NCBI GenBank assembly: GCA_964535805.1
Contig: CAZHUM010000001.1
Coordinates: forward strand, 39,122 to 103,121
Direction of reading: 5' to 3'
Length of the DNA: 64,000 nucleotides
Source: an uncultured Thermoplasmata archaeon
GTDB taxonomy: Archaea > Thermoplasmatota > Thermoplasmata > Halarchaeoplasmatales > Halarchaeoplasmataceae
The notes beneath the pieces were generated by a model. The model did no database searches, was not told the origin of the DNA, and worked only from the letters and a program-made list of their open reading frames with translations. This document shows, in pieces, positions 26,679 through 52,800 of the stretch (the first letter of the stretch is position 1; every line of letters starts with the position of its first letter). The translations under genes and the position numbers were made by a program.

Positions 26679-26864
26679 TAAACTTAGAAAGGGGTGTCCC
26701 TTACTATTAATCTAATTGATATATCATAAAGTGTTATACCCTAAAATATATTTAATTCATTTTTTTAAAATCCGAAAAATCAATAAGCTTAATTATCCCG
26801 TATCTATTGGGGGTATATCGCTCTAACCATGGGTTTCATTCAATGTAGCCATGGAGGGATAGGC

Positions 26865-29800
26865 ATGCCGGAATTAAAGTATTCAGAAGACATCGGACGA
26901 TATTTCGAAGAACTCGAAAACAAAGCCAAACAGTGTTACTCCATAGCTAAAAAGGCCAGGGAGAAGGGTTACGACCCGAAGACCGACGTCGAGATACCCA
27001 TGGCCGAAGATCTAGCGGTCAGATGTCAGGAATTGACCGGCATAATGAATACCGCCGACAAGATAAGAGAGCTAACCGATGAATATGGGAATCGGGAAGA
27101 GGTTGCCCTCCTGATCGCAAAAGAGGTTGCTAACAGGGAGGGGGACAAACGAAAAAGGTTGGAGGACGCCATCCGTATCGGTCTAGCTGTTCTTACAGAG
27201 GGTATCTTGGTAGCACCTCTCGAAGGCATAGGTGATGTTCAGATAAAGGGTGGTGGTACCGGTGAGGATTATGCTGAACTCTCATTCGCCGGACCTATAC
27301 GTTCTGCAGGAGGCACCGGGCAGGCGATGAGCGTTCTGATAGCGGATGTCGTCAGAAGAGAGCTCGGTATAGGTGCTTACAAGCCAACACCGAGTGAGAT
27401 ACAGAGGTACAAAGAGGAGATACCTCTTTACAAAAAAGCGAAGAGCCTTCAATACACCCCCTCGGCGGAAGAGATAGAGATGATCGTTAAAGGGTGTCCC
27501 GTCAGTATAAGCGGTGAAGGAACAGAAAGGGAAGAAGTCTCCGGTAATCGGAATTTACCTAGAGTGGATACCGATAGATTAAGGGGCGGGGCATGTCTGG
27601 TGATAGCGGAGGGTATGACGTTAAAAGCCAAGAAACTGAAAAAACACGTAGATAAGTTGGGTATCGAAGGGTGGGAATTTCTAGATGAATACATAAGCAA
27701 ATACTCTTCTGGTAAAAAAGATGATGATGAAAAAGATTTTAAAGGTGTCAAACCCAATTTCAAGTACATCAAGGAAACGATAGCTGGTAGACCTGTTTTC
27801 GGACATCCCAGCGAGAAAGGTGGGTTTAGATTGAGATATGGGAGGAGCAGGACGCTCGGATTGGCTGCCATAGCCGTTAATCCCGCTACTATGTACCTCA
27901 CAGACGAATTCATGGCCATCGGCACCCAAGTAAAAACGGAGCGGCCAGGGAAAGCGGGAGCTGTTACACCATGTGATACGATCGAAGGTCCGACAATTCT
28001 GCTCAAAAATGGAGAAGTAGTTAGGGTACACACAAAGGAAAAAGCGGTCAAACTTAAAAGCAATGTAAAAGAGATTATCGATCTCGGTGAGATACTCATC
28101 CCTTACGGTGAATTTTTGGAGAACAACCATAAGTTGGTACCGGGAGCTTACTGCCACGAATGGTGGGTGCAGGAAGTCGATGAAGAATTCTATCCCGAGG
28201 AGATCGATGCTGAAATGGCTGTGAAACTATCCGTAGAACGAGGATACCCGCTACATCCGAAGTTTATTTACATGTGGCATTACACGGAAAAGGGATCCAT
28301 CGAAGAACTTAGAGGATTTATCTCTCAGAACGGCACAGTCGAAGACGGAAAACTCGTTCTAGAAAACGATGAAGATATAAAAAGCATAATGGAAGATGTC
28401 GGGATTCCACACAGAAGGGAAAGTAAAAAATTATTCATCGATCCTTACAAACCTCTTCTGTTAACACTCGGTTTGAACATGGATGATTTGAGTATCGAAG
28501 GTGAGGGTGGTTCATCGGACATATGGGAGTACCTCAGCGAGATATCTGGTATCAAGGTTAGAAATAAAGGTCCTACATTCATAGGCGCCAGGATGGCTAG
28601 ACCCGAGAAAGCTAAAGAAAGAAAGATGGACCCGCCAGTTCATGGACTGTTTCCCGTGGGAGATGCAGGAGGGTCTCAACGTTTGGTAAGTAAAGCCGTT
28701 GATAAGGGCATAATAGATGTGACAGTTAGTGCGAGGAGGTGCACCTCATGCGGCAAGAGTGGCCCCTTGATTCGATGTTCATGTGGTGGCAGATGTGAGA
28801 TAATCGAAGAACCGCAGAACATCAAGATACCCATGTCATCGATATTCAAGCAGGCTCGAAAGACCCTGGGTGAAGGTGGCAATATCAAGAAGATAAAGGG
28901 GGTGAAAGGGATGATAAACAAAACGAAGACACCCGAGGGGTTGGAAAAGGGGATACTTCGAGCTAAACATAATATATACGTTTTCAAGGACGGCACGTCT
29001 AGATACGACATGACCGACCTGCCAATCACTCATTTTAAGCCAAAAGAAATAGGGCTGTCCATCCAAAAGGCCAGGGAGTTGGGCTACGATCACGACATCC
29101 ACGGCGAAGAGCTAACCGAAGAGGATCAGATCGTGGAGATCAAACCTCAAGACGTGATCGCATCAACAAATTCCGCTGAATATTTAATCAAGATATCCAA
29201 CTTCATAGACGATCTATTAGAAAAGTACTATGGGATGGACAAGTTCTACGAAGCGAAATTTGGAGAGGACCTTATCGGAGAACTTGTTGTCGGGTTGGCA
29301 CCCCACACTTCAGGCGGTGTTCTTGGCCGCTTGATCGGATTCCATAAAGGGCGAGCTGGGTACGCTCATCCGTATTTCCACGCAGCAAAAAGGCGTAACT
29401 GTTTTTCTCCAGACACCAACATATGGGTGAGATCTCATGATGAATGGGAGTTGAAATCCATAAAGGAGGTAGTGGAAGAAAATTTATGTGAAGGGAACTT
29501 AAATTCTGATGATTTTGGTACCGAATATAAATCGATCGATGGGATGCTTGTACCTTCTATTTCTAAGGATGGTGAAGAAGAATTACGGAAGGTGACCCAT
29601 GTTTCTAAACACCCTGCACCTGGGCATAATATTAAATTCAGAACTAGAGCGGGGAGAACAATCATGGTTACCCCCCAACATAAAATGTTGAGGTGGGACG
29701 ACAACTTAGAATTTTGTTATGCCAGCGAGATTGAAAAGGGAGATAAGATCCCCGCCCCTAAACAGATAAATATTGATGGCAGAAATGTAGAGTTAGACCT

Positions 29801-31631
29801 TTTAAAAGAACTATCTGAAATACCTTCTATTAAAAATCAATTGATGATTAGAAAAGTTCCGATAGATTATCTTAAAAAATTGCTGATTAAGGGGCTTTCA
29901 TCAAAACATTATCTCAAAAAATTATCAGAAAGGGTTGACCTTAACAAAAAAACCATCTCTAGCTATGTACAAAGAGCTAGTTTCCCATTTTGGATTTTAA
30001 AAAAGATTTTCGGAAAAGAAATCTATAAGATATTGCCCGAAAATTTAGAATTGGGTATAAAGAGGGACAACATAAATATAAAAAGGTACCTCCGGGTAGA
30101 TGAGGATTTTTGTAGGGTGATGGGATATTATGCCGCAGAGGGTTTCTCTAGGAAAAAAAGGGGGGGTTTCTACCAGATTACTATATGCTCACCAGATAAA
30201 CCGGCTAGGGCATTAATAAAGAAGGTTTTCGAAAGCCATTTGGGAGTAAAGGCATTCGATGAAAATAAATGGAAAGTAACCGTCTCAAGTAATCTAATCT
30301 ATCGCCTTTTTAACGGTGTATTAAAAGTGGGGAAGAATGCACATGATAAAAGAATACCACCTCATATACTTACATCGACTGACAATTGTTTATCTGCTTT
30401 TCTTTCATGTTATTTCTCCGGCGATGGTTCCACATCATCTAAGCGGTTGGACATTAGAGCAAATACAGTCAGTCACAAATTAGCTCATGAAATTGTTTAT
30501 TCTCTGAAAAGATTCGGGATAAATTCCAAATTATATAAAGAAAAAAGGGGTGTTAGCGGTATAGTTAAAAAATTCTATATAGATAATAACATAGACCATG
30601 AAAATAAGATATTTACATCATATATTATTAAAATCACCTCAGAAAATACAATTTTATTTAATGAAAAAATAGGATTTGACCTAAATAGAAAATCGAAAGC
30701 TCTGTCGAATTCAATTGAAAATTCTCCCGTTAGAAGCCAAAGAATGATGACTAATAGGGGAGATATATGGTTGGACGAAATAGAAGATATATCTATAGTA
30801 GAAAAATCTTCAGATTACGTTTATTCTTTGACGGTAGAGGAAAACAATACTCTGATAGCTAATGATTTATATTTAGGACAATGTGACGGTGATGAGGACT
30901 GCGTTATGCTTCTTATGGACGGCTTGCTGAACTTTTCTGAAGATTTTCTGCCTGAAAAGCGGGGCGGTAAGATGGACGCACCACTTGTGCTGACAACCAG
31001 AATAAACCCATCGGAGATAGACAAAGAGGCACACAACGTGGATACCATGTGGAAATATCCATTGGAATTCTATGAAAGGGCTATGGATTATCCCAATCCA
31101 AAAGATCTTACGGATATCATGGAAACCGTGGATAATAGATTGGGCACGAACGAGCAGTACGAGGGTTTCGGATATACACATGAAACATCCGATATATCCC
31201 AGGGTCCGGAAACTAGCAGATACACAAGGTTAAAGAAGATGACGGATAAGATGGAGGCACAGGTAAAAGTAGCACAGATAATCAGAGCGGTAGATACCGA
31301 TGACGTTGTGAGAAGGGTGATATCAGATCATTTTATTCCGGATATGATCGGGAACTTCAACAAATTCTGTGTCCAGACGGTGAGATGTACCGGTTGTAAT
31401 AAAAAATACAGGAGACCTCCGCTGAGTGGTAAATGCACGTGCGGCGGGAATCTAACGTTGACCGTTCACAAGGGAGGGGTAAAAAAGTACCTAGACCACT
31501 CGCTGAAGATGGTTAGAAGGTTCGATCTACCCGTCTACCTAGAACAAAGGGTGGAACAGATCGCCAGTCAGATAGATTCTTTGTTCGAGAATGACAATAT
31601 CTCCAACCCGAGTTTGGATGAGTTCTGTTAA
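26865..31631 (+). CDS. polC: DNA polymerase D (Pol II) large catalytic subunit DP2, interrupted by an in-frame intein.
   Basis: The N-terminus MPELKYSEDIGRYFEEL resembles Pyrococcus DP2. GGAGG lies 8 nt upstream. The conserved extein motif AAKRRN/CDGDEDCVMLL is split by a 494-aa insertion, and C-terminal Cys clusters are present. The extein totals about 1,106 aa. Confidence 0.9.
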   Translation: MPELKYSEDIGRYFEELENKAKQCYSIAKKAREKGYDPKTDVEIPMAEDLAVRCQELTGIMNTADKIRELTDEYGNREEVALLIAKEVANREGDKRKRLEDAIRIGLAVLTEGILVAPLEGIGDVQIKGGGTGEDYAELSFAGPIRSAGGTGQAMSVLIADVVRRELGIGAYKPTPSEIQRYKEEIPLYKKAKSLQYTPSAEEIEMIVKGCPVSISGEGTEREEVSGNRNLPRVDTDRLRGGACLVIAEGMTLKAKKLKKHVDKLGIEGWEFLDEYISKYSSGKKDDDEKDFKGVKPNFKYIKETIAGRPVFGHPSEKGGFRLRYGRSRTLGLAAIAVNPATMYLTDEFMAIGTQVKTERPGKAGAVTPCDTIEGPTILLKNGEVVRVHTKEKAVKLKSNVKEIIDLGEILIPYGEFLENNHKLVPGAYCHEWWVQEVDEEFYPEEIDAEMAVKLSVERGYPLHPKFIYMWHYTEKGSIEELRGFISQNGTVEDGKLVLENDEDIKSIMEDVGIPHRRESKKLFIDPYKPLLLTLGLNMDDLSIEGEGGSSDIWEYLSEISGIKVRNKGPTFIGARMARPEKAKERKMDPPVHGLFPVGDAGGSQRLVSKAVDKGIIDVTVSARRCTSCGKSGPLIRCSCGGRCEIIEEPQNIKIPMSSIFKQARKTLGEGGNIKKIKGVKGMINKTKTPEGLEKGILRAKHNIYVFKDGTSRYDMTDLPITHFKPKEIGLSIQKARELGYDHDIHGEELTEEDQIVEIKPQDVIASTNSAEYLIKISNFIDDLLEKYYGMDKFYEAKFGEDLIGELVVGLAPHTSGGVLGRLIGFHKGRAGYAHPYFHAAKRRNCFSPDTNIWVRSHDEWELKSIKEVVEENLCEGNLNSDDFGTEYKSIDGMLVPSISKDGEEELRKVTHVSKHPAPGHNIKFRTRAGRTIMVTPQHKMLRWDDNLEFCYASEIEKGDKIPAPKQINIDGRNVELDLLKELSEIPSIKNQLMIRKVPIDYLKKLLIKGLSSKHYLKKLSERVDLNKKTISSYVQRASFPFWILKKIFGKEIYKILPENLELGIKRDNINIKRYLRVDEDFCRVMGYYAAEGFSRKKRGGFYQITICSPDKPARALIKKVFESHLGVKAFDENKWKVTVSSNLIYRLFNGVLKVGKNAHDKRIPPHILTSTDNCLSAFLSCYFSGDGSTSSKRLDIRANTVSHKLAHEIVYSLKRFGINSKLYKEKRGVSGIVKKFYIDNNIDHENKIFTSYIIKITSENTILFNEKIGFDLNRKSKALSNSIENSPVRSQRMMTNRGDIWLDEIEDISIVEKSSDYVYSLTVEENNTLIANDLYLGQCDGDEDCVMLLMDGLLNFSEDFLPEKRGGKMDAPLVLTTRINPSEIDKEAHNVDTMWKYPLEFYERAMDYPNPKDLTDIMETVDNRLGTNEQYEGFGYTHETSDISQGPETSRYTRLKKMTDKMEAQVKVAQIIRAVDTDDVVRRVISDHFIPDMIGNFNKFCVQTVRCTGCNKKYRRPPLSGKCTCGGNLTLTVHKGGVKKYLDHSLKMVRRFDLPVYLEQRVEQIASQIDSLFENDNISNPSLDEFC
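29400..30881 (+). mobile_element. Intein (494 aa) in polD DP2 with a LAGLIDADG homing-endonuclease domain, ending in Gln instead of Asn.
   Basis: It begins at Cys (CFSPDTNIWV), sits between KRRN and CDGDED, and carries two LAGLIDADG-type motifs (VMGYYAAEGFS and LSCYFSGDGS). The last residues are ...LGQ followed by extein Cys. Both boundaries are in frame with the CDS. Confidence 0.85.
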
Positions 31632-31642
31632 TCGTGTCCTTT

Positions 31643-32659
31643 TTAAAATGAAAAAAGGTCCGCTTGCTTATCCATGTCCCTAGCTTCTATTATCTTTTCA
31701 ACTGCGGAACCAACCCGTGATTCCGAGAATCCCCTTTCATCGCACAGAAATTTCTTTATTCCCTCCAGGTCAGGGTCTTGGAATTCGATGACGTACTCAT
31801 CCGTCACTTTGGGATCTAAGAACAGCTTTTGGATGATTTCATAGTTGTTAACGTATACATCGCTACTTTCAAACACACCTTCGATATCTCCATGCTTCTT
31901 GATCTTTTTTAATCCTCGTTTTGGACCGATACCTTTGATGCCGTCGTTGTAATCGGTTCCCATGAGTATAGCGATATCGATGAGCTGCTTTCTCGATATT
32001 CCCAGTTCCCCAAGTGTTTCTTCCAACTTTATCAGTTCCGGCATGACATCTTTGTACTCGTTTCTTCCAGGTAGTTTTCTTCTCCCTGTTATCGTCAAAT
32101 TTCTCACCAGCCTATCCGCACCGCAAAGCAGCGAATCGAAGTCCTGGCTTCCGACAGCCCATGCATCTCCCTTGGTGACCATATGAGCGGCTTGACTCTC
32201 ACCTTCCGCCGGGGCTTGTACGTATGGTATGCCCATCAATTCCAATAGTTTTTTTGCACTTTTCTCTATCTCATCGCTCATCCTGGAAGTCTGCTGTGCC
32301 TTGCTCCTAGCTCTTTCTAGATCTCCCTTATCTAGGGCTTTTTGGTATTCTTTTTCGGCTTCTTTCTTCCTTTTTTTCCTTTTTTCGAGAGTGCCCTCCT
32401 TCATTATATCGGGTTTTCCATCAAAAACGTAGACCAGTTTCAGACCGGACTGCAGTAGATTGGAGTTCCTGTAAAGGAGTCCGGAAAGATGTGACGTTAT
32501 CCTCTCATGGGAATCCATCAGGGGAGTTCCATCTCTTTGCCTTATGCTCGCCAAGAATTGATATATTATATTGTATGCATCTACCGCTATCGCTTTTTCT
32601 TTTAGTTCATCGATATCGATCTCTTTCGACACCACAATATCTCCAAGGGCGACCCCCAT
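31643..32659 (-). CDS. fen: Flap endonuclease 1 (FEN-1).
   Basis: XPG N/I domains (MGVALGDIV..., AIAVDAYNIIYQFL, VYVFDGKPDIMK) and a C-terminal PIP-like tail (KQADLFSF). Confidence 0.9.
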   Translation of the reverse strand: MGVALGDIVVSKEIDIDELKEKAIAVDAYNIIYQFLASIRQRDGTPLMDSHERITSHLSGLLYRNSNLLQSGLKLVYVFDGKPDIMKEGTLEKRKKRKKEAEKEYQKALDKGDLERARSKAQQTSRMSDEIEKSAKKLLELMGIPYVQAPAEGESQAAHMVTKGDAWAVGSQDFDSLLCGADRLVRNLTITGRRKLPGRNEYKDVMPELIKLEETLGELGISRKQLIDIAILMGTDYNDGIKGIGPKRGLKKIKKHGDIEGVFESSDVYVNNYEIIQKLFLDPKVTDEYVIEFQDPDLEGIKKFLCDERGFSESRVGSAVEKIIEARDMDKQADLFSF

Positions 32660-32670
32660 TTTATCAATCC

Positions 32671-33384
32671 CTAAAAGACTTCTCCCTCTGTTTCGACGAT
32701 CAGGCCCTTATCAGTTATGCGGTAGGGTTTCACTTTACGGGTGTGTTCGATCCTCCTCATTTTCTTTACCTGTATGCTCATCTGTACGTCTTGATTTTCC
32801 AGCTGGTTGTATCTAAGTAATATAACACCATCGGCTGTGTACTCGACCAAACCGTCCCTAGAGCTTTCAGGGTTGTCGTCCTTGACTTCCGCGGTAAGGA
32901 GTGCTGTCGCTCCGGATTCTTTGATCTTTTGACAGAGGTCGAAGAGCCGCTTCCTTTTATCCTGTACATCTCCGGAGAGCATGTTCAAGAGGGAGACCGA
33001 ATCGATGGCGATCCTATCCGCTTTAAATTCCTTTATAAACCTCGGAAAATCGCTTTTCAGTTTGTTAATGGTAGCTTCAGCATCGGCAGGACTCAGTTTC
33101 TCTACCATGATCTGTTCGTCCTCGATATAAGGGGCAAAATCCCATCCATAGGACTTGCCTGTTGTGACGACCGCTTCTCTATCTTCTTCAAGTGAAAGGA
33201 AGATGCATTTTTCACCTTTTTCAAGCCCCGCCCATAGATACTGCAGTGCAAAAGTTGTTTTTCCAGTCCCGAAGGACCCCATAACGGTGAAAACGTGACC
33301 TCTAGGGACACCTCCGTAGAGCATCTCGTTCAAACCCTCTATTCCCGTGGTTACTCTTTCTATATTATCATCCATACATATCAC
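32671..33384 (-). CDS. KaiC-like RecA-superfamily ATPase (aRadC-like).
   Basis: GIEGLNEMLYGGVPRGHVFTVMGSFGTGKTTFALQYL is the KaiC-type Walker A context, with Walker B ADRIAIDSVS. The gene lies 11 nt upstream of fen. Confidence 0.8.
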   Translation of the reverse strand: MICMDDNIERVTTGIEGLNEMLYGGVPRGHVFTVMGSFGTGKTTFALQYLWAGLEKGEKCIFLSLEEDREAVVTTGKSYGWDFAPYIEDEQIMVEKLSPADAEATINKLKSDFPRFIKEFKADRIAIDSVSLLNMLSGDVQDKRKRLFDLCQKIKESGATALLTAEVKDDNPESSRDGLVEYTADGVILLRYNQLENQDVQMSIQVKKMRRIEHTRKVKPYRITDKGLIVETEGEVF

Positions 33385-34253
33385 CTAATTTTTTCATAAT
33401 TTACTACGGTATAACCGTCAAGTGCGGATACCTCCGCTGTAAACCTAGCTATCTTCTCCCTCTTCAAATGAGGTAGGACACTCATGAACTTTTCGACTAT
33501 CATGTATCTCTGCCGTTGGGAAGAGCGGTGTGTCTTGGACCATTCGAACTGGATAACTCCGTCTACACTGTCGATTATCAAGTACTCCAAGCTTTTCTCT
33601 ATGATCCCCTTTGTCAAAAGGAGATATACTATGCCACCCCATTTCTTGGATGCTCTTCTCATGCCTTTCAGTATCGTCACAAGTTTATCCTTCTCGATTG
33701 TGTTGTTGGTAAGCAGGTCCGTGAGTGAGTCTACTATCACGATGTTATCCTCAGCATTGGCCTCAAGGAAATCCACGAGTTCCTCCAGGAGATTGGAGTT
33801 GGTATCACTTGAAAAAATAGACGATGTTGATCCATCGGTGGTCCAGCTGTGAGGTACCATGGTCCTTTTGAAATACGCATTAGAAAAGTCTTTGAACAAA
33901 AGAGATTCCTCTATGGCGTCGTAATAATCCTGGTTGAAAGACATCTTTACTTCATCTAGGATGTCTTCTTTCGCCCTTGAGAAAGTCAGGTAGTGGATCT
34001 CCTCTGGCAATATCGATTTTTTACATTCGTCTCCGAGTACTATGTGTATGTTGTCCTTGTCCGGATTTTCTTTTACCCTGAGTATCTTAGCTGCGGAGGT
34101 GTAAGTAAATTCCAGGCCTCCAGCACCTATCTCTGTTAACAGTAAAACAACGGAACCTGCGGGGAGTCCACCCCTGATAATAGAATCTAAATCGCTTACT
34201 CCTGTAGGTATCTTTTTCATATGTGAACTCCTGTCAGACTCATCGTCTGACAA
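33381..34253 (-). CDS. Degenerate KaiC/RecA-like paralog, a predicted pseudo-ATPase.
   Basis: Same fold context (GVSDLDSIIRGGLPAGSVVLLLTEIGAGGLEFTYTS), but the Walker A Lys/Thr are replaced (GAGGLEF). A 4-nt overlap with the downstream KaiC-like gene suggests an operon. Confidence 0.55.
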   Translation of the reverse strand: MSDDESDRSSHMKKIPTGVSDLDSIIRGGLPAGSVVLLLTEIGAGGLEFTYTSAAKILRVKENPDKDNIHIVLGDECKKSILPEEIHYLTFSRAKEDILDEVKMSFNQDYYDAIEESLLFKDFSNAYFKRTMVPHSWTTDGSTSSIFSSDTNSNLLEELVDFLEANAEDNIVIVDSLTDLLTNNTIEKDKLVTILKGMRRASKKWGGIVYLLLTKGIIEKSLEYLIIDSVDGVIQFEWSKTHRSSQRQRYMIVEKFMSVLPHLKREKIARFTAEVSALDGYTVVNYEKIR

Positions 34254-34602: not shown

Positions 34603-34611
34603 TTCATTGCT

Positions 34612-37515
<2,904 letters not shown>

Positions 37516-37523
37516 TGTTTATC

Positions 37524-39348: not shown

Positions 39349-42300
39349 ATGAGGTTTAGCTTGCCTAATCTAAGCAAAAAAACAGAAACACGGAAGCACG
39401 TCGATGAGTCAATATTAGAGAAACACTGGGGTACCATAGTCTCGCTTTTAGGAATATTTTTCCTAGCATTCTTTATACGTACCTACTTCGCTTTCGATTT
39501 AGCGACAAAATACGGAACGCCTTATTTGTTGTCAGGAGGGTCTGACGCATATTATTATGGTAGGATCATCGACTATATACAAACCAATCATCAGCACCTT
39601 ACCTTCGACCCATTATTGAATTACCCGATGGGTTCTAGAAATCCTCGTCCACCTATATTCGCCTGGTCTATAGTTCTGATAGGACATTTACTAAGCCCAT
39701 TTGTAGGCAGCGTGAACGTGGGGATCAACTACGCATTCATTTTATCTACAGGGTTCTGGGGTGCTCTAACTATCTTCCCAGTATATCTCATCGGAAGGGA
39801 TACTTTCGGGAAAAAGGCCGGGATGGCTGCTGCGTTTCTATTAGCCATAAGTTCTGGTCATCTACAGAGAAGTCCTATTACTAACGGCGATCACGATGCG
39901 ATCTACCTTTTCTTCATCGTGACGGCATTCTACTTCTTTATGAAAGCTCTTGAGGGCATACCAGATGAGAAAAATTGGATATCCTCTTACAAGGATCCTA
40001 GTGCCATTAAGAACGGATTAAAACAATTTGTAATGGAGAACAAGAGGTCTTTGCTTTATTCCGGATTGTCCGGTATGTCAATAGCATCCGTAGCTCTTAT
40101 CTGGAAAGGGTATGCCTACGTCATAGTTATTCTGATAGTCTACTACTTCATACAATTATTCATTGACCGATTAAGAACGAGAGATTCTTTGGGGATAACG
40201 GCCTGCATCGGAATATCAATAGGTTTGGCTTTCCTAGTTTCCTCACCATACTATCTCATTGTTGGAATCGGACCTAGGTATTTTGATATCCCACTGTTGA
40301 TGTTCGCCGCTGGTTTTGGAGTAGGTATATTCCTTACGGTTACACGGGATTGGCCCTGGGTTCTCACCTTTTCCATCATCATCGCCGGACTTGTCGTATT
40401 TATATTATTGGGATTATACGTATTACCGAGCTTATTAACCGCACTGACAAGTGGTGCTGGTTACTTTGTTCAAACCAAAGCCATATCCACTATCGCAGAG
40501 GCTCAAGCTCCAGCGTTCAGTAATCTGGTGATGTCATTCGGATTGGTATCATTCTTCCTTTCCATAGCAGGCATTGGACTCGCGATATGGCACTTTAAAA
40601 ATAGTTGGAAAACGAACTTTCTTTTAATCTTATTGTGGACAGCACTTGCCATCTACATGGCTATGTCCGCTGCGAGGTTCATTTTCAATTCTTCCCCTGC
40701 ATTTGCCCTGACAGCTGGTTGGGTCATTGCATTGGTGGTCGACAAGACTGACTTCCCCGCCATATCAAAAACATTCCAAAGTTTCAAGGGGGATGTGTTG
40801 TACGGCATTTGGAAGAGCGTCAAGCTGAGACATGCAACCGTTGCGGTTTTCGTTGTTTTCATGATTATGGTTCCAAATGCTATGTATGGAATGGATTCTG
40901 GAATACCTTATGAAGAGAAAGAGGGATACAACAAACAGATACACAGAGCACTTCCCGAACCCATTAGACCTGAAGGATACAATGCATCTAGTGGAGACAA
41001 TTGGTACCTCGGTGCTTTCGGATATGCATTGGATAAACCAAATGAATACTGGCCCGCATCGTGGGAGTGGTTGGCCCGTCAAGACAACGATAAAGAACCA
41101 GCGGAGAGACCTGGTTTCTTAAGTTGGTGGGACTACGGTTTCGAGTGCGCTAGACAGGGCGATCATCCCACTGTGGCTGACAACTTCCTTAACGGACATC
41201 AGCTGGCCGGTAACGTACTCATGGCTCAGAATGAATCCGAGATACTTGCTCTATTCATTACTAGAGAACTTGAAGATACATACAGTAAAAGCGATGGATT
41301 TGACGACGACATAGAAGAAATACTCATCGATTATATCGGTGAAGAGAAAACCCATGAGTTAGAAAGAACATTTAAGGATCCAGAGAGATATAAAGAGGAG
41401 GTTCTATCCAACCCGGAAAAATATCACCCAAGGGACGAAGATTTGGATAGACATAATATAAAATACGCAAGGTGCATGGGGATGTTGTCTTACGAGGGGC
41501 TAGATACCCTTGGAGAATTGTATAGAGATATCTCATTAAAGATAGATAAAAGGATCAAGTATATTGCAATGGATACAAGATTGTTTCCATTCTCTGGAAC
41601 GAACACGGGCATATTCTATGCACCAGCAAAATTATCCGGACACCGTATCTACGAGGAACATGGTATGCGGACACCCATCGATTTTTACAAGGTGCTTTTG
41701 GTAGATGAACAAGGTAATGAGTACGAAAACCCAGATAAAGTACCCCAGGAGGTCAGTATCACGGATTACAAGATAGATTACCAACCTGCGTTCTTCAATT
41801 CCACCCTGTATAGAGTGTTCGCAGGGTATTCCGCCCAGGAGATAGGCGAAGGAGAAGGCATTCCGGGTTTAGACAATCAAGAGCTCCAACCTATGCCTTC
41901 ATGGAACATGACGCATTTCAAGTTATCTTATAGGACCGCTTATTTTAACCCGTATCCAAGGGATGAAGTCCGTGATCATCCAGATGCATGGAAGGCGATT
42001 TCATATGAAAAAGCCCTCGAGTACCACCAGGACGATAACGTCACGGTTGATTTGAGCGCCCAAAGTTACATGAGACAGGGTGTGGTTTATTTGGAGCACT
42101 TCGATGGAGCATTGATCTCTGGCAAAGTAACCACCGAAGAAGGCGAGCCCATAGCCAATGCAAGGTTAACCGTTCTTGATGATACCGCGACCCCACATCA
42201 AATGGATTACACGGATGAAGACGGTAGTTATTCCCTTAAAGTCCCTTCTGGAAACATATCCGTTATCGCATCTGTCGGAGGATTGAGCGGAGGGCAAAGG

Positions 42301-45300
42301 GCACAAAATATAGAATCAATAATGCTGGGTGCTTTTTCTATGAACATAAGCGAAGAACAGGCCATGAGAGTGAAAAAAGATAGAGACGGTGACGGAACCT
42401 GGGATTACTTGATAGATAAAAACATAAAGATCGATACAGGTAATCTTACTGTTAACGTATTCGTAGATGAAAACAGAGATGAAAAATTCTCATTTGAAAA
42501 TGATACTTTAGTACCGGGTGAGATTACTATCGAGAACCAAAGAAGTGGTGTTGAATATGTTTCTGAAGAGAACAACGGAAGCCATACGTTCACCGGTATT
42601 TTACCAGGTAAATACAGAGTAACTACGGATGTCGAAGGCGGTATGTCTATTACCGATGTTTCAGTTAAAAGCGGAGCTGAAAATGAAGAGAGTATAATTC
42701 TGACCACCGGATCTATATCAGGAAACGTAGAAATGGATGCTGAAAACATGAATGCGAGCTCCATTGAACTGGTAGTTAAAAACGAAGAAGGAGGCGAGAT
42801 GATCACTAGTTCTATAGACCAGGGCGGCAATTATTCTATCGAACACCTCAGAATTGGAACATATTCAATTCATGTTAATACAGATGGTTTCGCGATAAGA
42901 GAAGGCGCTATTCGATTTATCATAGATGGAGAAGTGAGTTTGACGAAGAACTTCAACATATCCCGAGCTGAAAGGGTGAATTTGAGGACTAAAACGTCCA
43001 ATAAACTGCTCCCCTATCAAAAAATATCATTCATCGACAAAGAAAACTATCGATACTCCCAAACCATACAAACTGGTAAAGAGGGGAAAACAGAGATAAA
43101 ACTGCCCTTGGGAAAATACTTGGTATATGGGACCGTGCAAAGGGATAATAAGTTCTACGTACATATGAACACGATAGAAGTAACGGAGGAAGTCAACTAT
43201 ACTGCTGAGTTGGTAAGGGGATTCCAAGTCGAAGGTCAAGTTGATTCATCGGAGATAACGTCCAATATGGGGAGTAATATCTTGTTCAGCTTGGATGAGG
43301 ACAAACAGGGCTTGGCAGCCACAAACAGAGAAGGCCTGTACTCGTTAGTGGTGGAGCCCGGAGATTACAATATTTTCGGGTGGAACACGGTGGGTGCGAC
43401 CAGTTCTTCATTCTGGAAAACGGAAACCATCGACAGCGAAACGAAAATAGATTTCGAGACAAAGGTATCCTATCGTGCTAGTGGAAACGTTTACAGGGAC
43501 CTGAATCTAAACGGCCAATATGATAAAGGAGAGGGGATATCTACAGAGATCAAGGTCACTGTGTCGGGCAACAATTACTTCTTCGATTCAGGATTTGATG
43601 GGAATTATACACTGATCTTACCGGAAAAGGAATGTAGGATCACGTTCTCCAAAGCGGGATACATCCAAAAGAGTGTGATATACGACCCGGAGGTCGAATT
43701 TTCACGCAACATCAATATGAATGCTAAAAACTTGTCAGTACACGGAGATATAATCTGCAACAAGGAGTTCTCTTCACTACCCGTCAAATTTGATCCTTTG
43801 TCTAAAGGCGCTGTACTGAACGAGATATCCGTTAATAATTCTGAATACACAACAGGATTACAGCCGGGTGATTATGAAGTGACGATCTACTCTAGTCCGT
43901 CCGAAGGAGAAAGATACATCTACTCAACATTTGTAAGCCTTGAACCTGGTGAAGAGGATATAGAATTAGATCTTCCTGTTAAATACCAGGTGAGGATGAC
44001 GGGTAACATCTTCGGACCTGCAGGAGATAGTACATATGCAGAAATACGATTATCGGGCCCAGAGGTGCGCACCTTGTCGGGTAACGGCACGTATTCAGGC
44101 TATTTCGCACCGGGTAACTACACGCTATGGGCTGTGAATAAAGAAGAAGAACTAATCAATCAAACTGAGGTTTCACTTGTATCGCCTATACAGTTGAATA
44201 TCACCATGGAAGATGCCCATATATTTTCCCCGTTCGTTACCTTCGATGAAGAACCTAGGGATAACCTACCAATAATGTTCGAACAGATAGAAACGGGATT
44301 CGTGTTCAACCAAACGACGGATCCGGATGGAACCTTCAATTTACCGCTTGTAAGTGGGACATATGAAGTGACTGTGGATTACGAAACTACAGAACCCGTT
44401 GAAGGGGTTCTGAGAGATGTACGTTATCACTATTCGGACACCTTTGTGATCGACTCACACATGGCACCTGAGATAGCTTTGAACAGGGACATAATCAACG
44501 TTACTTTAGAGGGTGTACTCAAAGCAGATGATGAGACTGTCCAGGGGGCCACTATTGAATTCATAGCAAACGGCCCAGAATCCATGGATACAGAAGTCAC
44601 GACGGGGTCCGATGGGACTTATCAGCTTGATATCTCCCGGGGGTTATACACCGTCTATTGTCATGTGTCAGGAAGTAAAGGATTATATGCACAATTCAAC
44701 GAATTCATAATGCCCGAAGCTAATGAAACTTTGAACATCAATCTCTCCAAAGCATACAAGATAACAGGTAAAGTGAGTAAAGACTCTCAGGATGTCGAAG
44801 CCGACATCAAAGTTTCCTCTATGAAAGGGGTTGGTGAGAAGATATTCCACTCCGATAAAAATGGAGAGTATGAGATAGTACTCCCATCCGGGGAATACTT
44901 GATAACCGTGACTGAATCAGTGGGCGGAGATAACGTATATAAAGCATCAGAAAGGATAGAGTTGGAGTACAGCTTGAAAAAGAACTTTGTTCTCAAGATG
45001 GTCAAAGAATACGGTATCGAAACTGAAGAACTGATAGAAAAAACAGTAAAGCAGGGAGATAATATCAGTTTCGAGGTAAAAGTCAAGAACACTGGAAACA
45101 CTAAGGACACCTACGAGTTCTCGGCACCTAAAGCAATTTGGGACATTGAATTCACGCCTAAAAAGATGACTGTAGAAAACGGTAAAACCGACACTTTGAT
45201 AGTGGACGTTCACGTATCTGAAGACGCATCTGCAAATCATCCACCCATCTCTTTCAATATAGATTCTATGAACTCCGAAAAGGCAGAAGAAGTTACTCTT

Positions 45301-45804
45301 CCAATCGAAGTAAAACAGGTATACGGTGTCGATGTAGTTCCCGTCGCAATGAGAACGGTTTACGATAATGGTAAACTTACATACCGTGTGAAAGTTGAGA
45401 ACAGCGGAAACGGGGATGACAGCTATAAATTATCTCTGCTCAACAAAGGATACCTTGAATCACAGGGATGGGAAGCTTCAGTTAACAATGAAACGGAAAC
45501 GATCACGGATGGTGGCCAAGAAGAGATAGAAATAACACTTAAGGCGAGATCAAGTAAGCCCAGCAGGAAAGTTGATGTAGAGTTAGAAGTCGTTTCTAAT
45601 GGGGATTCATCGGTTTATGAAGAAGAAGTACTAGAGGTTGTCCTACCAGAGATTCAATCAAGTAGCGATAATTTCTCACTTCACGGAAAGAATCTTGCTA
45701 CTGAGAAAGAGAAACTGGAGATCACGACAGGTCAGTGGTCGGTTATAATCATACTGGTGTTGATCTCTACATTCTATGTGGCTAGGAAGAAGAGGTGGAT
45801 ATGA
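39349..45804 (+). CDS. aglB: Giant AglB/STT3 oligosaccharyltransferase (2,151 aa). It comprises a 13-TM STT3 core with a WWDYG periplasmic domain, then about 1,100 aa of tandem CarboxypepD_reg/Ig-like beta-sandwich repeats and a C-terminal TM anchor with a polybasic tail.
   Basis: GGSDAYYYGRI first-loop acidic motif, multi-TM N-terminus and FLSWWDYGFECAR motif. Repeated G-K/N-V-x-x-x-x-G-x-P-I-x-x-A-x-(L/V)-T-V and D-(E/G)-x-G-x-Y modules run from about residue 900 to 2,050. It ends ...WSVIIILVLISTFYVARKKRWI. AGGTGA RBS is present. Confidence 0.85.
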   Translation: MRFSLPNLSKKTETRKHVDESILEKHWGTIVSLLGIFFLAFFIRTYFAFDLATKYGTPYLLSGGSDAYYYGRIIDYIQTNHQHLTFDPLLNYPMGSRNPRPPIFAWSIVLIGHLLSPFVGSVNVGINYAFILSTGFWGALTIFPVYLIGRDTFGKKAGMAAAFLLAISSGHLQRSPITNGDHDAIYLFFIVTAFYFFMKALEGIPDEKNWISSYKDPSAIKNGLKQFVMENKRSLLYSGLSGMSIASVALIWKGYAYVIVILIVYYFIQLFIDRLRTRDSLGITACIGISIGLAFLVSSPYYLIVGIGPRYFDIPLLMFAAGFGVGIFLTVTRDWPWVLTFSIIIAGLVVFILLGLYVLPSLLTALTSGAGYFVQTKAISTIAEAQAPAFSNLVMSFGLVSFFLSIAGIGLAIWHFKNSWKTNFLLILLWTALAIYMAMSAARFIFNSSPAFALTAGWVIALVVDKTDFPAISKTFQSFKGDVLYGIWKSVKLRHATVAVFVVFMIMVPNAMYGMDSGIPYEEKEGYNKQIHRALPEPIRPEGYNASSGDNWYLGAFGYALDKPNEYWPASWEWLARQDNDKEPAERPGFLSWWDYGFECARQGDHPTVADNFLNGHQLAGNVLMAQNESEILALFITRELEDTYSKSDGFDDDIEEILIDYIGEEKTHELERTFKDPERYKEEVLSNPEKYHPRDEDLDRHNIKYARCMGMLSYEGLDTLGELYRDISLKIDKRIKYIAMDTRLFPFSGTNTGIFYAPAKLSGHRIYEEHGMRTPIDFYKVLLVDEQGNEYENPDKVPQEVSITDYKIDYQPAFFNSTLYRVFAGYSAQEIGEGEGIPGLDNQELQPMPSWNMTHFKLSYRTAYFNPYPRDEVRDHPDAWKAISYEKALEYHQDDNVTVDLSAQSYMRQGVVYLEHFDGALISGKVTTEEGEPIANARLTVLDDTATPHQMDYTDEDGSYSLKVPSGNISVIASVGGLSGGQRAQNIESIMLGAFSMNISEEQAMRVKKDRDGDGTWDYLIDKNIKIDTGNLTVNVFVDENRDEKFSFENDTLVPGEITIENQRSGVEYVSEENNGSHTFTGILPGKYRVTTDVEGGMSITDVSVKSGAENEESIILTTGSISGNVEMDAENMNASSIELVVKNEEGGEMITSSIDQGGNYSIEHLRIGTYSIHVNTDGFAIREGAIRFIIDGEVSLTKNFNISRAERVNLRTKTSNKLLPYQKISFIDKENYRYSQTIQTGKEGKTEIKLPLGKYLVYGTVQRDNKFYVHMNTIEVTEEVNYTAELVRGFQVEGQVDSSEITSNMGSNILFSLDEDKQGLAATNREGLYSLVVEPGDYNIFGWNTVGATSSSFWKTETIDSETKIDFETKVSYRASGNVYRDLNLNGQYDKGEGISTEIKVTVSGNNYFFDSGFDGNYTLILPEKECRITFSKAGYIQKSVIYDPEVEFSRNINMNAKNLSVHGDIICNKEFSSLPVKFDPLSKGAVLNEISVNNSEYTTGLQPGDYEVTIYSSPSEGERYIYSTFVSLEPGEEDIELDLPVKYQVRMTGNIFGPAGDSTYAEIRLSGPEVRTLSGNGTYSGYFAPGNYTLWAVNKEEELINQTEVSLVSPIQLNITMEDAHIFSPFVTFDEEPRDNLPIMFEQIETGFVFNQTTDPDGTFNLPLVSGTYEVTVDYETTEPVEGVLRDVRYHYSDTFVIDSHMAPEIALNRDIINVTLEGVLKADDETVQGATIEFIANGPESMDTEVTTGSDGTYQLDISRGLYTVYCHVSGSKGLYAQFNEFIMPEANETLNINLSKAYKITGKVSKDSQDVEADIKVSSMKGVGEKIFHSDKNGEYEIVLPSGEYLITVTESVGGDNVYKASERIELEYSLKKNFVLKMVKEYGIETEELIEKTVKQGDNISFEVKVKNTGNTKDTYEFSAPKAIWDIEFTPKKMTVENGKTDTLIVDVHVSEDASANHPPISFNIDSMNSEKAEEVTLPIEVKQVYGVDVVPVAMRTVYDNGKLTYRVKVENSGNGDDSYKLSLLNKGYLESQGWEASVNNETETITDGGQEEIEITLKARSSKPSRKVDVELEVVSNGDSSVYEEEVLEVVLPEIQSSSDNFSLHGKNLATEKEKLEITTGQWSVIIILVLISTFYVARKKRWI

Positions 45805-49854: not shown

Positions 49855-52800
49855 CTAATAATCCACGGACCAATCTACGGGGGCATCCGCCCCATTATAG
49901 ACCCAATATGCTCTACCTTTTACCAAAACCTCGGTTGAAAGGTCTTGGATGTACTCCAGATTGTAGGGGGCCCATTCATTATAAACACCGAGTTTCGTGA
50001 TCTCTGATGGGAGGGTATTTGAGGCGATTTTATTAGATTCGGATGGATATCCTACCATGTTCCATCCTGGTTTCAATTCGATCTTTGTTCTGTATGGGTG
50101 ATGACCCTGGATGGTTAGTGTGTCGTTCTTCGTCATGTGTATCCAAATACCCATGGTATGATCCCATGTGTTAAGGTCGTTATAATGACTCGATCTACCC
50201 GCGGCGAACGTTTTCCACTCTCCATCTGTGCTGTCATAGTACATCACTTTATCGTAACTTCCTTCTATACCCCTTTCTGGGGCGTTCAACATTGATTCTA
50301 TGCTCTTATCTTTCGGAACTAAATTTGTAGAGATAAAATTCCATCCTTCTGATGCCCCGCTTGATCCTAGTGTGATATTGTGTGTCAAACTCCTTCTAGC
50401 TTCGTAATATCGGTCCCATAAAAAACTTCGGAAGGGATTGTAATGAACGTAGAGGAATCCTATCACCTCGGGATCGTTGGTCAATCTGTCCGTATCTATT
50501 TGGAACCAGTTGAACGTTCCGTCGTCGTTGAAAAATATATTGGAATATTTGATATTATCTATCTTAGAAACGTTCCTACCGGTGGTATTGTAAAGTGAGC
50601 TCCATGAGTTATATGTCGTGATCGTTGCACTTCCTCCGTTGTGTGTATCGATGGCAGACCTGATAGTGAGATGTTGTTCTACATAATCTGTGTAGTTATC
50701 GATCGTCTTGGATATGTTGTCCCAGTTAAGGTATGTATTTGTTCTGGCAAGTTCTTTGGCAGCTAGTGCACCATACTTCATGCTCCTTCGTCTCCATGGG
50801 TCCGGCTCATCTAGATAACTAAAATATGCCCAAGTGCCCTTGGAATCGCCGGTGTATATCTGATCGTTGATTATGTATCGAATACAAGTCCTCATGTGTG
50901 GTAAAAGCCTATCGTCGTGATAGTAACTGCTGTTCAAGTTTTCATCGAAGTACGCTTGTGTGAATAACCTGCCAAGTTTACTATAACCATTTACGTAAAC
51001 AAATGGATGGTCTTTGTTCACCCCTTTTATCCCCCCTGAACCGTTGTTGGGTTCCGTGGATGTCCATGGCACGGTGTAGTTGATTCCACCATGATATGTG
51101 ATATTGTCCATGGCCACCTTGTTCAAAATAAAATCGATGACCGTATCGAATGCATTTAGATACGTTTCATTGTGTGTGTAAAAATATGCATCCTGCAGGG
51201 CCAAAGCGGCTCTAACGTTTCTATGTGTGTTCCATTCCTCGTATGTATCTTCAAATAGTCCTCTTACTTCGTAAACCGTACTAAAATTGTACAGACCCCA
51301 CTCATCCCTGAAGCTCAAGGCGTAATCGAATTGTTTTTCTCCTCTTTCAAGATAGCTATCGTTACCGGTGCGTGCGTGAGCACCGTAGTATGCAAGTCCC
51401 ATCTCCATCAATATATCAGGCAGCCAATCTTCGTAGATCGTATAATACCCGTCGGCATCTTCGTTCTTTACCCCCCATTCCATCATCTGCAGGCATTTTT
51501 CTGTTTTGTTCTTATAGGGCACGATGGTTTCGTTGTAATAACCGGCGAAGAAAACGTCTGACCACGCCTTGAGGTTGTCATCTGTAATGGATCGAACCGG
51601 GTCGATTTCAGCGCGTATCTTATCATATCCTTCAACCTCTGGAATCCAATCTACTGATATTTTTTCAGACGCATCCGGTGACACGGAGATACTCTTTTGT
51701 GCGATCGGAATTTCTCTGTAATAGAACGTAACATTACCTTGGTAGTTTTGTGTAAGATTACTGGTGACGGAAACGGATAAAGTTATGTTCTGCGGACCCA
51801 TAGAATTATTTATGGGTACGAAAGAGGTGGGATCGGTGGTGACGTTGGTAAGGTAAATCCTTTCCGTGGTTGAGGTGTTAAGAGAGATGAAATTATAAGA
51901 GGAGGGTGAGAAGTAAGTAGTTTTATTGTCCGCTGTTATCCCGAAAATATTTTTTTGTGAATATGTGCTGCCGTTAGTCCTCCATATGAATGGTATCTCG
52001 TGTAATCTACCGATGTCATCGGTCCAGTAGGTTCTCTCACTACCGCCCTCCTTTGGGAAAATTTTTACTTCATGATTTTCGAGTATATCGCTACCGTTCT
52101 TCACCAGAAAGTCATGATAGTAGCCTTTCTTGATACGCCCGCCAGATGTTATCTCCCAGTCATCTATGGTGCAGTTCATCAGAGTTAAATTCCCACTGCT
52201 GGTCACGCTAGCATCGTATTCCCAGTTATCATAGAATGTAGAATTCGTGATGTTCACGAAATTGGTCCCGCTCGATAGTAGAATTCCTGTACTGTCAAAA
52301 TTTTTAAAGGTTATATTATTGAGATATTGGTCGGTTATATCTCCGGCGGCATAGAAAACCAGTCCGTTTAACCCGCTGGACAGTATGGTGTTCACTATTT
52401 CTACACCAGTACCATAGATCTCTATCCCCCTTTTACCTACGTTATTACCCCACCCCGTGTCCATTATATGGCTCCCTTCAACGTACAAAGTACCGGATTC
52501 GTTCTTATGTATGTTGTATCGGTTCTCTCCTTCCCACCACCTCTTTTCCTCGGGCTTGCCCGCTATCTCTGAGCGAGTTATGTTAACCCCTCCGGTTGAG
52601 TTTATCTGGAAGGTTTTTTCGTTATCAAAATATAGGGTCTCATCCGTTATATTCAACCATCCTTGAACCGTAAGATTCGCATAACAATACCCCGTGCGGT
52701 TTGGACTGTCGTAGTAGAAAACGGTTTCATCGCCAACATCAGTGTATATCGATGAGAGTGAATTACCTCCTCCAAACACATAGATCGTATCATGGGATGA

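Follow-up and report, generated by a model that had tools for sequence, protein, structure and literature searches.

The pol-IIa intein allele of the PolD large subunit (DP2) has been recorded in 75 of 118 halobacterial genomes and in 16 other Euryarchaeota (PMC4071816), and the flanks of the PolII intein are given as HAAKRN and CDGDED (PMC8175363). For the PolII inteins of Pyrococcus horikoshii (Pho) and Pyrococcus abyssi (Pab), which end in Gln, a block-F His and the penultimate His have been proposed as the catalysts of Gln cyclisation (PMC8175363, PMC8229266). The C-terminal cyclisable residue is Asn or, more rarely, Gln or Asp; Gln is an accepted variant, and inteins ending in it are described as taking the standard class 1 route, the third step being cyclisation of the Gln, although other mechanisms are possible (PMC4031507). 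Here we describe a 494-aa intein from the 64-kb stretch of Thermoplasmata DNA that we analysed (the window). Its sequence anatomy, junctions, homology, fold, conservation and signs of purifying selection make it very probable that this is a functional large pol-IIa intein, belonging to a Gln-ending clade with the block G pattern D-[LVI]-x-x-G-Q (the GQ clade), in a Thermoplasmata host related to Ca. Saliniplasma.

Host gene and intein anatomy

The DP2 gene, intein included, occupies 26829..31631 on the forward strand, where the longest open reading frame from 26829 comprises 1600 codons and holds the intein in frame; a database protein (P0001, 1588 aa) that is 100% identical to this DP2 starts at the ATG at 26865 (MPELKY...). 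The product carries the Pfam domains PolC_DP2_N, PolC_DP2_central and PolC_DP2_cat (E 1e-107 to 1e-145), the last of which is interrupted by Intein_splicing (E 7.6e-14) and LAGLIDADG_3 (E 6.7e-14). The N-extein (26829..29399, forward strand) ends in ...FHAAKRRN, and the C-extein (30882..31631, forward strand), in which PolC_DP2_cat resumes, begins with the +1 nucleophile Cys (TGT) of CDGDED, the catalytic-centre motif of DP2. At the N-terminal junction (29400) the DNA reads AAA AGG CGT AAC / TGT TTT, encoding KRRN/CF, and at the C-terminal junction (30881/30882) it reads GGA CAA / TGT GAC GGT GAT GAG GAC, encoding GQ/CDGDED. In 42 intein-less DP2 homologues the sequence is unbroken across the site (AAKRRNCDGDED), with KRRNCDGDED contiguous and the N-extein running straight on into CDGDED; both junctions therefore lie exactly where a preliminary description of this DNA had placed them. 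That description had reported a 494-aa, Gln-ending DP2 intein at KRRN/CDGDED, and translation, junction DNA and intein-less homologues all bear it out, as does the alignment with DP2 intein alleles that it had proposed as a check, which puts the C-terminal junction at GQ/CDGDED. The Pho PolII construct 5bkh aligns with ...Q/CDGDED at the same junction, as expected of the pol-IIa allele. An in-frame insertion at KRRN/CDGDED, in a conserved host protein that is contiguous in the intein-less homologues (n = 42), is far beyond chance expectation and marks the element as an intein. The import of this beyond annotation is small: the 1600-aa frame should be annotated not as one polymerase but as two products, spliced DP2 of about 1106 aa and a free endonuclease of 494 aa.

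The intein itself (29400..30881, forward strand; 494 codons, CFSPDTNIWV...TLIANDLYLGQ, laid out from Cys1 to Gly493-Gln494 / Cys+1) is a HINT splicing domain of class 1 type into which a LAGLIDADG endonuclease is nested, as indicated by its translation, Pfam, PDB and Foldseek matches and an AF2 model. Pfam Intein_splicing scores 52 bits against a cut-off of 35.8, and the AF2 model, with a pLDDT of 93.1 and a pTM of 0.92, matches many inteins in Foldseek, with PI-PkoII, TliVMA and PI-PfuI at the top. The best PDB match of the sequence is the intein endonuclease PI-PkoII (E 3e-28). The intein is AT-rich (GC 32–40%). Its protein sequence is rich in Lys.

The splicing blocks, all on the forward strand, can be assigned residue by residue. 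The block A nucleophile Cys1 (TGT, 29400..29402) is invariant in 107/107 pol-IIa inteins, and Cys+1 (30882–30884) is likewise invariant in the family. Block B carries the TxxH motif T91-P-Q-H94 (29670..29681), which aligns with T90/H93 of Pho PolII (PMC8229266); H94 is found in 107/107 pol-IIa inteins, and no intein of the Gln clades departs from T91. His71, some 23 residues before the block B His, lies within an SKH motif (Ser69-Lys70-His71, 29604..29612); all GQ-clade inteins have this His, and most inteins of the HQ and Asn clades lack it. A central segment at about aa 128–465 (29780..30794, from blastn and MAFFT comparison) comprises a linker, a helical DNA-binding-like region and the LAGLIDADG endonuclease. 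Block F (YVYSLTVEENNTLIAN, 30816..30863), placed by alignment to Pho PolII 5bkh and by family counts, has Ser476 at F:4 and Asn483 at the block-F His position (aligned with Pho His154), and its last residues are TLIAN. Block G (DLYLGQ, 30864..30881), placed by alignments and codon comparison, consists of Asp489 through the penultimate Gly493 (G:6) and the terminal Gln494 (G:7, CAA).

Terminal glutamine and the residues of the later splicing steps

The preliminary description had presented the Gln ending as a rarity, a view that fails at the pol-IIa site. When the intein family was collected by a whole-DP2 query and an exhaustive HMMER scan, 61 of the 107 pol-IIa inteins in the non-redundant union ended in Gln and 45 in Asn; the intein-bearing DP2 proteins among the best 120 homologues (n = 78) were divided into 41 with Gln and 37 with Asn, and representatives of 50%-identity clusters into 20 and 12, respectively. 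Every relative found in a scan of species genomes (Saliniplasma, Methanomassiliicoccales, Methanoperedens and Micrarchaeota) was Gln-ending. The ending ...TL[VI]AND[LV]xxGQ is common to dozens of Halobacteria, Ca. Saliniplasma and Methanomassiliicoccales, and the inteins of Methanoperedens and Micrarchaeota have other penultimate residues before the Gln. Gln is thus the majority ending at the PolD pol-IIa site, Gln494 provides the C-terminal cyclisable residue, and the intein described here is unexceptional within a known family. The rule that inteins end in Asn does not hold at pol-IIa, where Gln is in the majority across several archaeal phyla and warrants no anomaly flag.

Four residues that usually aid the later splicing steps are absent, with Gln in place of Asn at G:7, Gly in place of His at G:6, Asn in place of the block-F His and Ser in place of Asp at F:4. 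Two of these differences from the Pyrococcus inteins, Gly for the penultimate His and Asn for the block-F His, had not featured in the preliminary description. Both histidines are typical but non-obligatory, their positions being held here by Gly493 and Asn483. The G:6 His is missing from about 5% of functional inteins, and both it and the block-F His are absent from 26 of the 61 Gln-type pol-IIa inteins; the GQ clade as a whole has neither a G:6 His nor an F:4 Asp, and the block-F His is often absent from it, as it is in the window. A GQ ending together with Asn for the block-F His is also found in the DP2 of named Halobacteria on megabase contigs (e.g., Haladaptatus sp. DYSN1, Halobacterium sp. 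KA-6, Natrarchaeobaculum aegyptiacum and Haloferax larsenii). Halobacteria depend on PolD for survival, an argument that the GQ-type inteins there do splice; it is built on the named Halobacteria, the genome of the present host having been viewed through the 64-kb window only.

His71 occurs in 52 of the 54 Gln-type inteins without the G:6 His, in 2 of the 7 HQ-type and in 2 of the 45 Asn-type inteins, a correlation with the G:6 His that is confounded by phylogeny. As a hypothesis only, His71 could be a candidate compensating residue. That the GQ clade might cyclise its Gln through a set of residues other than that of Pab and Pho PolII, with His71 as candidate replacement, and so form a distinct mechanistic sub-class, is an idea suggested by the alignments that we hold to be unlikely. 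Gln-ending inteins lacking both step-3 histidines nonetheless constitute a natural set that could be used to probe the catalysis of Gln cyclisation.

Could the Gln be only apparent? An Asn, that of TLIAN, lies six residues upstream of the proposed junction, and if the intein ended there it would have a canonical terminus and DLYLGQ would be extein. However, the 42 intein-less DP2 homologues have no DLYLGQ-like insert, and Asp489, being neither Cys, Ser nor Thr, would be unfit as a +1 nucleophile. Moreover, blocks F and G are normally arranged in this way, with six or seven further residues after xxxAN, both in Pho PolII and in the two clades (the Asn clade reading HNFxxN....xN); we rejected the upstream junction on the intein-less alignments and accord it a negligible probability. 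TLIAN, previously taken for a displaced block-G remnant, is instead the regular C-terminal end of block F, for it aligns with ...YHTVIIN of Pho PolII and recurs across the Gln clade in the conserved form TL[VI]AN, the Asn clade having a conserved HNFxxN here. A sequencing or assembly error that turned an Asn codon into one for Gln, in whose favor there is only the fact that few inteins of any kind end in Gln, was rejected as well and is extremely improbable, as CAA differs from AAT and AAC by two bases. The codon for Gln494 is CAA in the window and in three related contigs (L001, L003 and L004) and the synonymous CAG in a fourth (L002); L003 is an independent assembly, from another run, of the same allele (3 nt differences over 4767, identical protein). 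The same or a synonymous Gln codon across related contigs therefore points to a conserved residue and not to base-calling error, and the terminal Gln is invariant in 44/44 GQ-clade sequences. Neither a junction elsewhere nor an error at the terminal codon, the two refutations that the preliminary description had foreseen, explains the Gln.

Alternatively, the Gln could be real and the intein in decay: splicing-deficient, or so slow that DP2 would exist mostly as precursor, it would either be on its way to being lost or serve as a conditional switch of PolD responding to salt, redox or temperature. The loss of the G:6 His, the block-F His and the F:4 Asp would fit such a state, and the PolII intein of H. 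salinarum is reportedly salt dependent, which also counts in its favor. The Pab and Pho PolII inteins are temperature- and disulfide-dependent and that of Mma is disulfide-dependent (PMC4031507, PMC3922620, PMC8175363), and the same trapping disulfide could arise here between Cys1 and Cys+1. However, both the splicing and the endonuclease regions are under purifying selection (dN/dS against L004 of 0.148 in the N-splicing and 0.157 in the C-splicing region; pN 0.23 and pS 0.77 against L002 in the endonuclease region), and the same set of residues recurs in those 26 Gln-type inteins, including the named Halobacteria with megabase contigs. Family alignments further give C1, T91, H94 and Q494 as invariant catalytic residues and D489 as invariant too, which would be unexpected under decay. 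The intein might have a regulatory role, though nothing specific in the sequence points to one. We consider a decaying or switch-like intein quite improbable and prefer the reading of a functional one.

Proposed splicing, homing and a mini-intein allele

For a functional intein, we infer the splicing chemistry, the splicing rate and the endonuclease activity as follows. Cys1, aided by Thr91 and His94 of block B, would undergo an N-S acyl shift, and the N-extein would then be transferred to Cys+1; Gln494 would cyclise to an aminoglutarimide and release the intein, a step that here would have to proceed with neither a penultimate His nor a block-F His; and an S-N shift would finally join KRRN-CDGDED and restore the active-site region of the polymerase. 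Step 3 is probably slow, by analogy with what has been measured in other Gln-ending PolII inteins. The preliminary description had spoken of slow, non-canonical splicing in the P. abyssi PolII intein: slowness agrees with the slow splicing of the Pab and Mma PolII inteins, whereas "non-canonical" is overstated in view of the class 1 steps (PMC4031507).

The same description noted that the LAGLIDADG domain appears intact, and our results concur. Motif 1 (VMGYYAAEGF, 30117..30146) and motif 2 (FLSCYFSGDGS, 30399..30431), both on the forward strand, align with LLGYYVSEGY and FLEGYFIGDGD of PI-PkoII and contribute one acidic residue each, Glu247 and Asp342, and both motifs are at least 90% conserved across both intein clades. 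The alpha-beta-beta-alpha-beta-beta-alpha core is present twice, and the AF2 model matches PI-PkoII, TliVMA, PI-PfuI and I-DmoI, the best fold match in Foldseek being PI-PkoII (TM 0.69). Judged from sequence and model, the endonuclease looks intact, and the nested enzyme, with Glu247 and Asp342, has most likely kept its ability to cleave DP2 alleles that lack the intein, whereby it would drive homing.

A strain ~99% identical to that of the window (L001) has a mini-intein of 176 aa; the endonuclease segment is bounded by sharp recombination breakpoints. By blastn and MAFFT, the segment 29780..30794 is replaced in it by a divergent linker of ~61 nt. The mini-intein allele (P0002) shows 96% identity to the window intein across its first 130 residues and complete identity across its last 29, and its alignment with Pho PolII (5bkh, E 4.6e-8) runs from end to end, Gln on Gln and CDGDED on CDGDED. 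Over the 48 nt beside the breakpoint the window and L001 are 52% identical, as compared to 85% between L001 and the more distant L004. We thus rejected the idea that the mini-intein arose simply through a recent deletion that removed the endonuclease; from these breakpoint-adjacent identities, the difference between the full-length and mini forms is an allelic replacement by recombination. Such a near-clonal pair of strains, one with a full-length intein and one with a mini-intein, separated at sharp breakpoints, offers a clear-cut natural case in which to study the intein homing cycle.

Comparison with described inteins

The PolII inteins of P. abyssi and P. horikoshii (2LCJ, 5BKH, 7OEC) lie in the same host protein at the identical site, KRRN/CDGDED, as had been stated earlier for P. 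abyssi. They align with the window intein over their whole length (E 4.6e-8) at an identity of only about 20–25%, and in the AF2 model the HINT portion fits onto 7oec (rmsd 1.9 Å) and onto 2lcj, the range for the Pyrococcus structures being 1.9–2.4 Å. However, they are mini-inteins of 166–185 aa, with no endonuclease, that end in ...THQ and have the block-F His, whereas the window intein has 494 aa with LAGLIDADG, ends in ...LGQ, and has Gly at G:6 and Asn at the block-F His position. Since Gly493 and Asn483 align with Pho His165 and His154, the penultimate and block-F histidines of the Pyrococcus type are lacking, and by sequence the window intein belongs to a sister clade of the ...THQ PolII inteins, outside that subgroup.

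PI-PkoII, the PolB intein of Thermococcus kodakarensis (2CW7), is the best sequence and fold match for the three-part architecture of HINT domain, extra helical domain and LAGLIDADG core. It resides in another host protein, a family B polymerase, and at another insertion site; both LAGLIDADG motifs align, and the kinship is limited to the endonuclease and the general HINT architecture. We take PI-PkoII to be among the Asn-ending majority of inteins, the PDB alignments used here stopping before its C-terminus. Closer in position are the Asn-ending pol-IIa inteins of other Thermoplasmatota (e.g., P0005–P0012 and P0056), which share the site and the endonuclease family, measure 472–488 aa and can be aligned throughout. 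They are only about 29–35% identical to the window intein and have features of their own: a CL[SP]... N-terminus, the F:4 Asp, a block-F His within HNF and an end in ...[ST]xN.

The halobacterial pol-IIa inteins (Soucy et al. 2014, PMC4071816), e.g., those in the DP2 of Haladaptatus, Halorussus, Haloferax and Natrarchaeobaculum, occupy the same site, have the same endonuclease, are about 490–500 aa long and share with the window intein the signature CF[HS]P[ED]T...SKHPAP...VTPxH...Y[SC]LTV..T[HN]TLVANDLxxGQ; the difference is in the host, a Thermoplasmata archaeon here and a halobacterium there. Identity to halobacterial and Saliniplasma inteins together spans 43–60%. For the halobacterial inteins it is 43–46%, nearly equal to that of the exteins (47–50%), and for this reason we considered a direct haloarchaeal donor. 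Haloarchaeal genomes are GC-rich; such a donor is disfavored by the AT-rich intein and by the closer relatives in Saliniplasma and Methanomassiliicoccales, and no close donor of the intein was found. The Thermoplasmata host and the AT-rich intein therefore place it on a separate sub-branch, together with the inteins of Ca. Saliniplasma (60% identity) and a Methanomassiliicoccales MAG (53%).

The intein, its junctions and its surroundings

An intein of 494 codons (29400-30881, +), translated from CFSPDTNIWV... to ...TLIANDLYLGQ, lies in frame within a listed ORF of 1600 codons (26829-31631, +) encoding DP2, the large subunit of PolD. Pfam recovers the PolC_DP2 N-terminal (PolC_DP2_N), central and catalytic (cat) domains (E 1e-107 to 1e-145), the last of these interrupted by Intein_splicing (E 7.6e-14) and LAGLIDADG_3 (E 6.7e-14). 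Among proteins of solved structure, the insert best matches PI-PkoII, an intein endonuclease (E 3e-28), and the PolII inteins of Pyrococcus abyssi (Pab) and of P. horikoshii (Pho) are also among the matches. The longest DP2 ORF opens with the ATG at 26829 (MGFIQCSHGGIGM...); the true start is probably 26865 (MPELKY...), 12 codons further on, where the database protein and every close homologue begin.

A search with the whole of DP2 returned 7074 homologues, of which the best 120 were scored for the insert: 42 are intein-less, reading unbroken through ...AAKRRNCDGDED..., and 78 carry an insert exactly between the same N and C at which the preliminary description had set both junctions. For the host, an uncultured Thermoplasmata archaeon, the nearest intein-less DP2 relatives carry the labels Ca. 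Saliniplasma, Ca. Natronoplasma or Thermoplasmata. The junction DNA reads AAA AGG CGT AAC/TGT TTT on the N side and GGA CAA/TGT GAC GGT GAT GAG GAC on the C side, so that translation, junction DNA and homologues all bear out an intein at KRRN/CDGDED ending in Gln. Were the intein instead to end at ...AN, DLYLGQ would belong to the extein; because no DLYLGQ-like extein sequence occurs in any of the 42 intein-less proteins among the best 120, a misplaced C-terminal junction is excluded. A sequencing error at the terminal codon is likewise ruled out: the window and an independent assembly of its allele from a different run (L003; 3 nucleotide differences in 4767, protein identical) both have CAA, as do two contigs of related lineages (L001 and L004), and a third (L002) has the synonymous CAG.

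The GC content of the intein is 40% in the N-splicing, 32.5% in the endonuclease and 28.7% in the C-splicing region, well below that of the exteins (45-47%) and of the whole window (44.2%); across the window, L001, L002 and L004 lineages, inteins are considerably AT-richer than exteins (31-37% vs 44-48% GC). Directly downstream of DP2 on the opposite strand (31643-34253, -) lie a gene for a FEN-1/XPG-family nuclease and two for KaiC/RecA-like ATPases, the latter assigned to Pfam KaiC in the window and to DUF7125 in the precomputed matches of relatives; the order of DP2, nuclease and ATPase genes is kept in L001, L002 and L004, which points to a conserved replication/repair neighbourhood. A complete archaeal 23S rRNA gene follows at 34607-37520 (+; Rfam LSU_rRNA_archaea, 2770 bits), and no 16S or 5S gene reached the Rfam threshold within the 64-kb window; the rRNA genes seem to be unlinked, an arrangement known for Thermoplasmata. 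Farther on, an ORF of 2151 residues (39349-45804, +) joins an N-terminal, AglB-like STT3 oligosaccharyltransferase to CarboxypepD_reg, NOMO and SdrD-type Ig-like repeats, which makes it an AglB fusion of unusual length, and another of 1023 residues (49855-52926, -) matches no Pfam family at E <= 1e-5.

The glutamine terminus and the splicing residues

The preliminary description had treated the C-terminal Gln as an oddity, but at this insertion site (pol-IIa) Gln is the usual ending. It closes 41 of the 78 intein-bearing proteins among the best 120 (38 of them as ...GQ) and Asn the other 37; among 33 pol-IIa inteins found by exhaustive HMMER search of 50%-identity cluster representatives, 20 end in Gln (HQ 7, GQ 6, SQ 3, others) and 12 in Asn; and in the non-redundant union of 107 inteins the counts are 61 and 45. 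When one genome per species was scanned for the closest full-length relatives, inteins turned up in Ca. Saliniplasma halalkaliphilum (60% identity, ...DLYVGQ) and a Methanomassiliicoccales MAG (53%, ...DLYTGQ) and, farther off, in Ca. Methanoperedens (...FQ) and in Micrarchaeota (...HQ, ...NQ); each has a terminal Gln. This ending is already a known variant in the literature. The preliminary description had also called the splicing of such an intein, that of Pab, slow and non-canonical; the slowness stands, since the PolII inteins of Pab and of Methanoculleus marisnigri splice slowly and a Q-to-N change makes them faster (PMC4031507, PMC8175363, PMC8229266), but the steps described are those of class 1, with Gln cyclisation as the third, although other mechanisms are possible (PMC4031507).

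The splicing domain comprises Cys1 (block A), T91-P-Q-H94 (block B), Y473-VYSLTVEENNTLIAN488 (block F) and D489-LYLGQ494 (block G), followed by Cys at +1. A 176-residue mini-intein allele in the DP2 protein P0002 matches the window intein at 96% of the N-terminal 130 residues and at all of the last 29; with Pho PolII it can be aligned over its full length (dyvysltveenntliand-lylgq/CDGDED over dfvfslnakkyhtviinenivthq/CDGDED). Because this alignment pairs TLIAN with TVIIN, TLIAN is the ordinary end of block F rather than the displaced block-G remnant suggested earlier. It also places Asn483 at Pho His154 (block F) and Gly493 at the penultimate His165, the residues proposed in Pho and Pab to promote Gln cyclisation (PMC8175363, PMC8229266).

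Within the 41-sequence Gln-ending set, C1, T91, H94, D489 and Q494 are invariant or almost so, Gly is the penultimate residue (G:6) in 38, the block-F His position is occupied by His in 22 and by Asn in 19, and position F:4 by Ser in 22 and by Cys in 19. Across the 107 inteins, F:4 is Asp in 41/45 of the Asn type and only 1/61 of the Gln type. His is missing from both G:6 and the block-F position in 26/61 Gln-type inteins, and the residue set of the window is therefore common in its clade. It recurs in DP2 of named Halobacteria whose contigs reach megabase size, among them Haladaptatus sp. DYSN1 (...EDTNTLVANDLFTGQ) and Natrarchaeobaculum aegyptiacum. In Halobacteria PolD is an essential enzyme, an argument that inteins of this kind do splice.

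We envision class 1 splicing as the most likely course: after an N-S shift at Cys1 and transfer to Cys+1, Gln494 would cyclise to an aminoglutarimide, which is probably slow here as it is in Pab PolII, and an S-N shift would restore KRRN-CDGDED; the Cys1/Cys+1 pair could form a redox trap like that described for Pab. One lead on a compensating catalytic residue is His71, invariant in the Gln-ending clade with block G D-[LVI]-x-x-G-Q (the GQ clade), within the motif Ser69-Lys70-His71 (29604-29612). It may serve in this way, being present in 52/54 Gln-type inteins without His at G:6, only 2/7 of the HQ type and 2/45 of the Asn type, a correlation confounded by phylogeny.

Maintenance of the intein and exchange of its central segment

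Several observations speak for maintenance of the intein. In comparison with L004, whose exteins are 93% identical, dN/dS is 0.148 in the N-splicing and 0.157 in the C-splicing region (exteins, 0.02-0.03), and against L002 the endonuclease region has a pN of 0.23 with synonymous sites saturated (pS 0.77). The LAGLIDADG domain looks intact, as had been noted from the sequence: VMGYYAAEGF (Glu247) and FLSCYFSGDGS (Asp342) align with the PI-PkoII motifs and are at least 90% conserved across Gln and Asn clades. The domain probably cuts intein-less DP2 alleles. An AlphaFold2 model from a 46-sequence alignment (mean pLDDT 93.1, pTM 0.92) has as top PDB matches PI-PkoII (TM 0.69), the TliVMA and PhoVMA inteins and PI-PfuI; Pho PolII 7OEC (rmsd 1.9 A) and Pab PolII 2LCJ superpose on its HINT part.

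Over 12 kb of flanking sequence, L001 (run SRR26473340) matches the window at 98.5-99.0% identity, yet it carries a 176-residue mini-intein in place of the 494-residue one, the endonuclease segment (29780-30794, about 1015 nt) giving way to a divergent linker about 61 nt long (approximately L001 8917-8976). A fresh endonuclease deletion could be imagined as its origin, but over the 48 nt before 30795 L001 is 52% identical to the window and 85% to L004, to whose linker, although from a more distant lineage, its own is homologous; we therefore reject a fresh deletion. The breakpoints are sharp, with identity to the window rising from 52% on the inner side to 98.9% on the outer, over the last 87 nt of the intein (L001 vs L004, 87.4%), and the L001 and L004 mini-inteins diverge about as much as their genes do elsewhere (81-87% identity). 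These sequence comparisons indicate that the window and L001 alleles differ because recombination replaced the central segment, crossing over within the sequence that codes for the splicing domain. Given such replacement, either the window lineage regained an endonuclease-bearing segment, possibly a re-acquisition by a mini-intein lineage, or both alleles persist in the population.

Relation to known inteins

The pol-IIa allele has been reported from 75/118 halobacterial genomes and 16 other Euryarchaeota, in many as mini-inteins (PMC4071816). Because its site is identical and its sequence and fold are homologous, the window intein is a member of this allele; nothing about it is categorically new, and the feature first flagged is the norm at the site. 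It belongs to the clade of large inteins ending in GQ that is best known from Halobacteria. In contrast, the biochemically studied "...THQ" mini-inteins of Pyrococcus have both a penultimate and a block-F His, positions we compared directly, and since the window intein has neither, it falls outside that subgroup.
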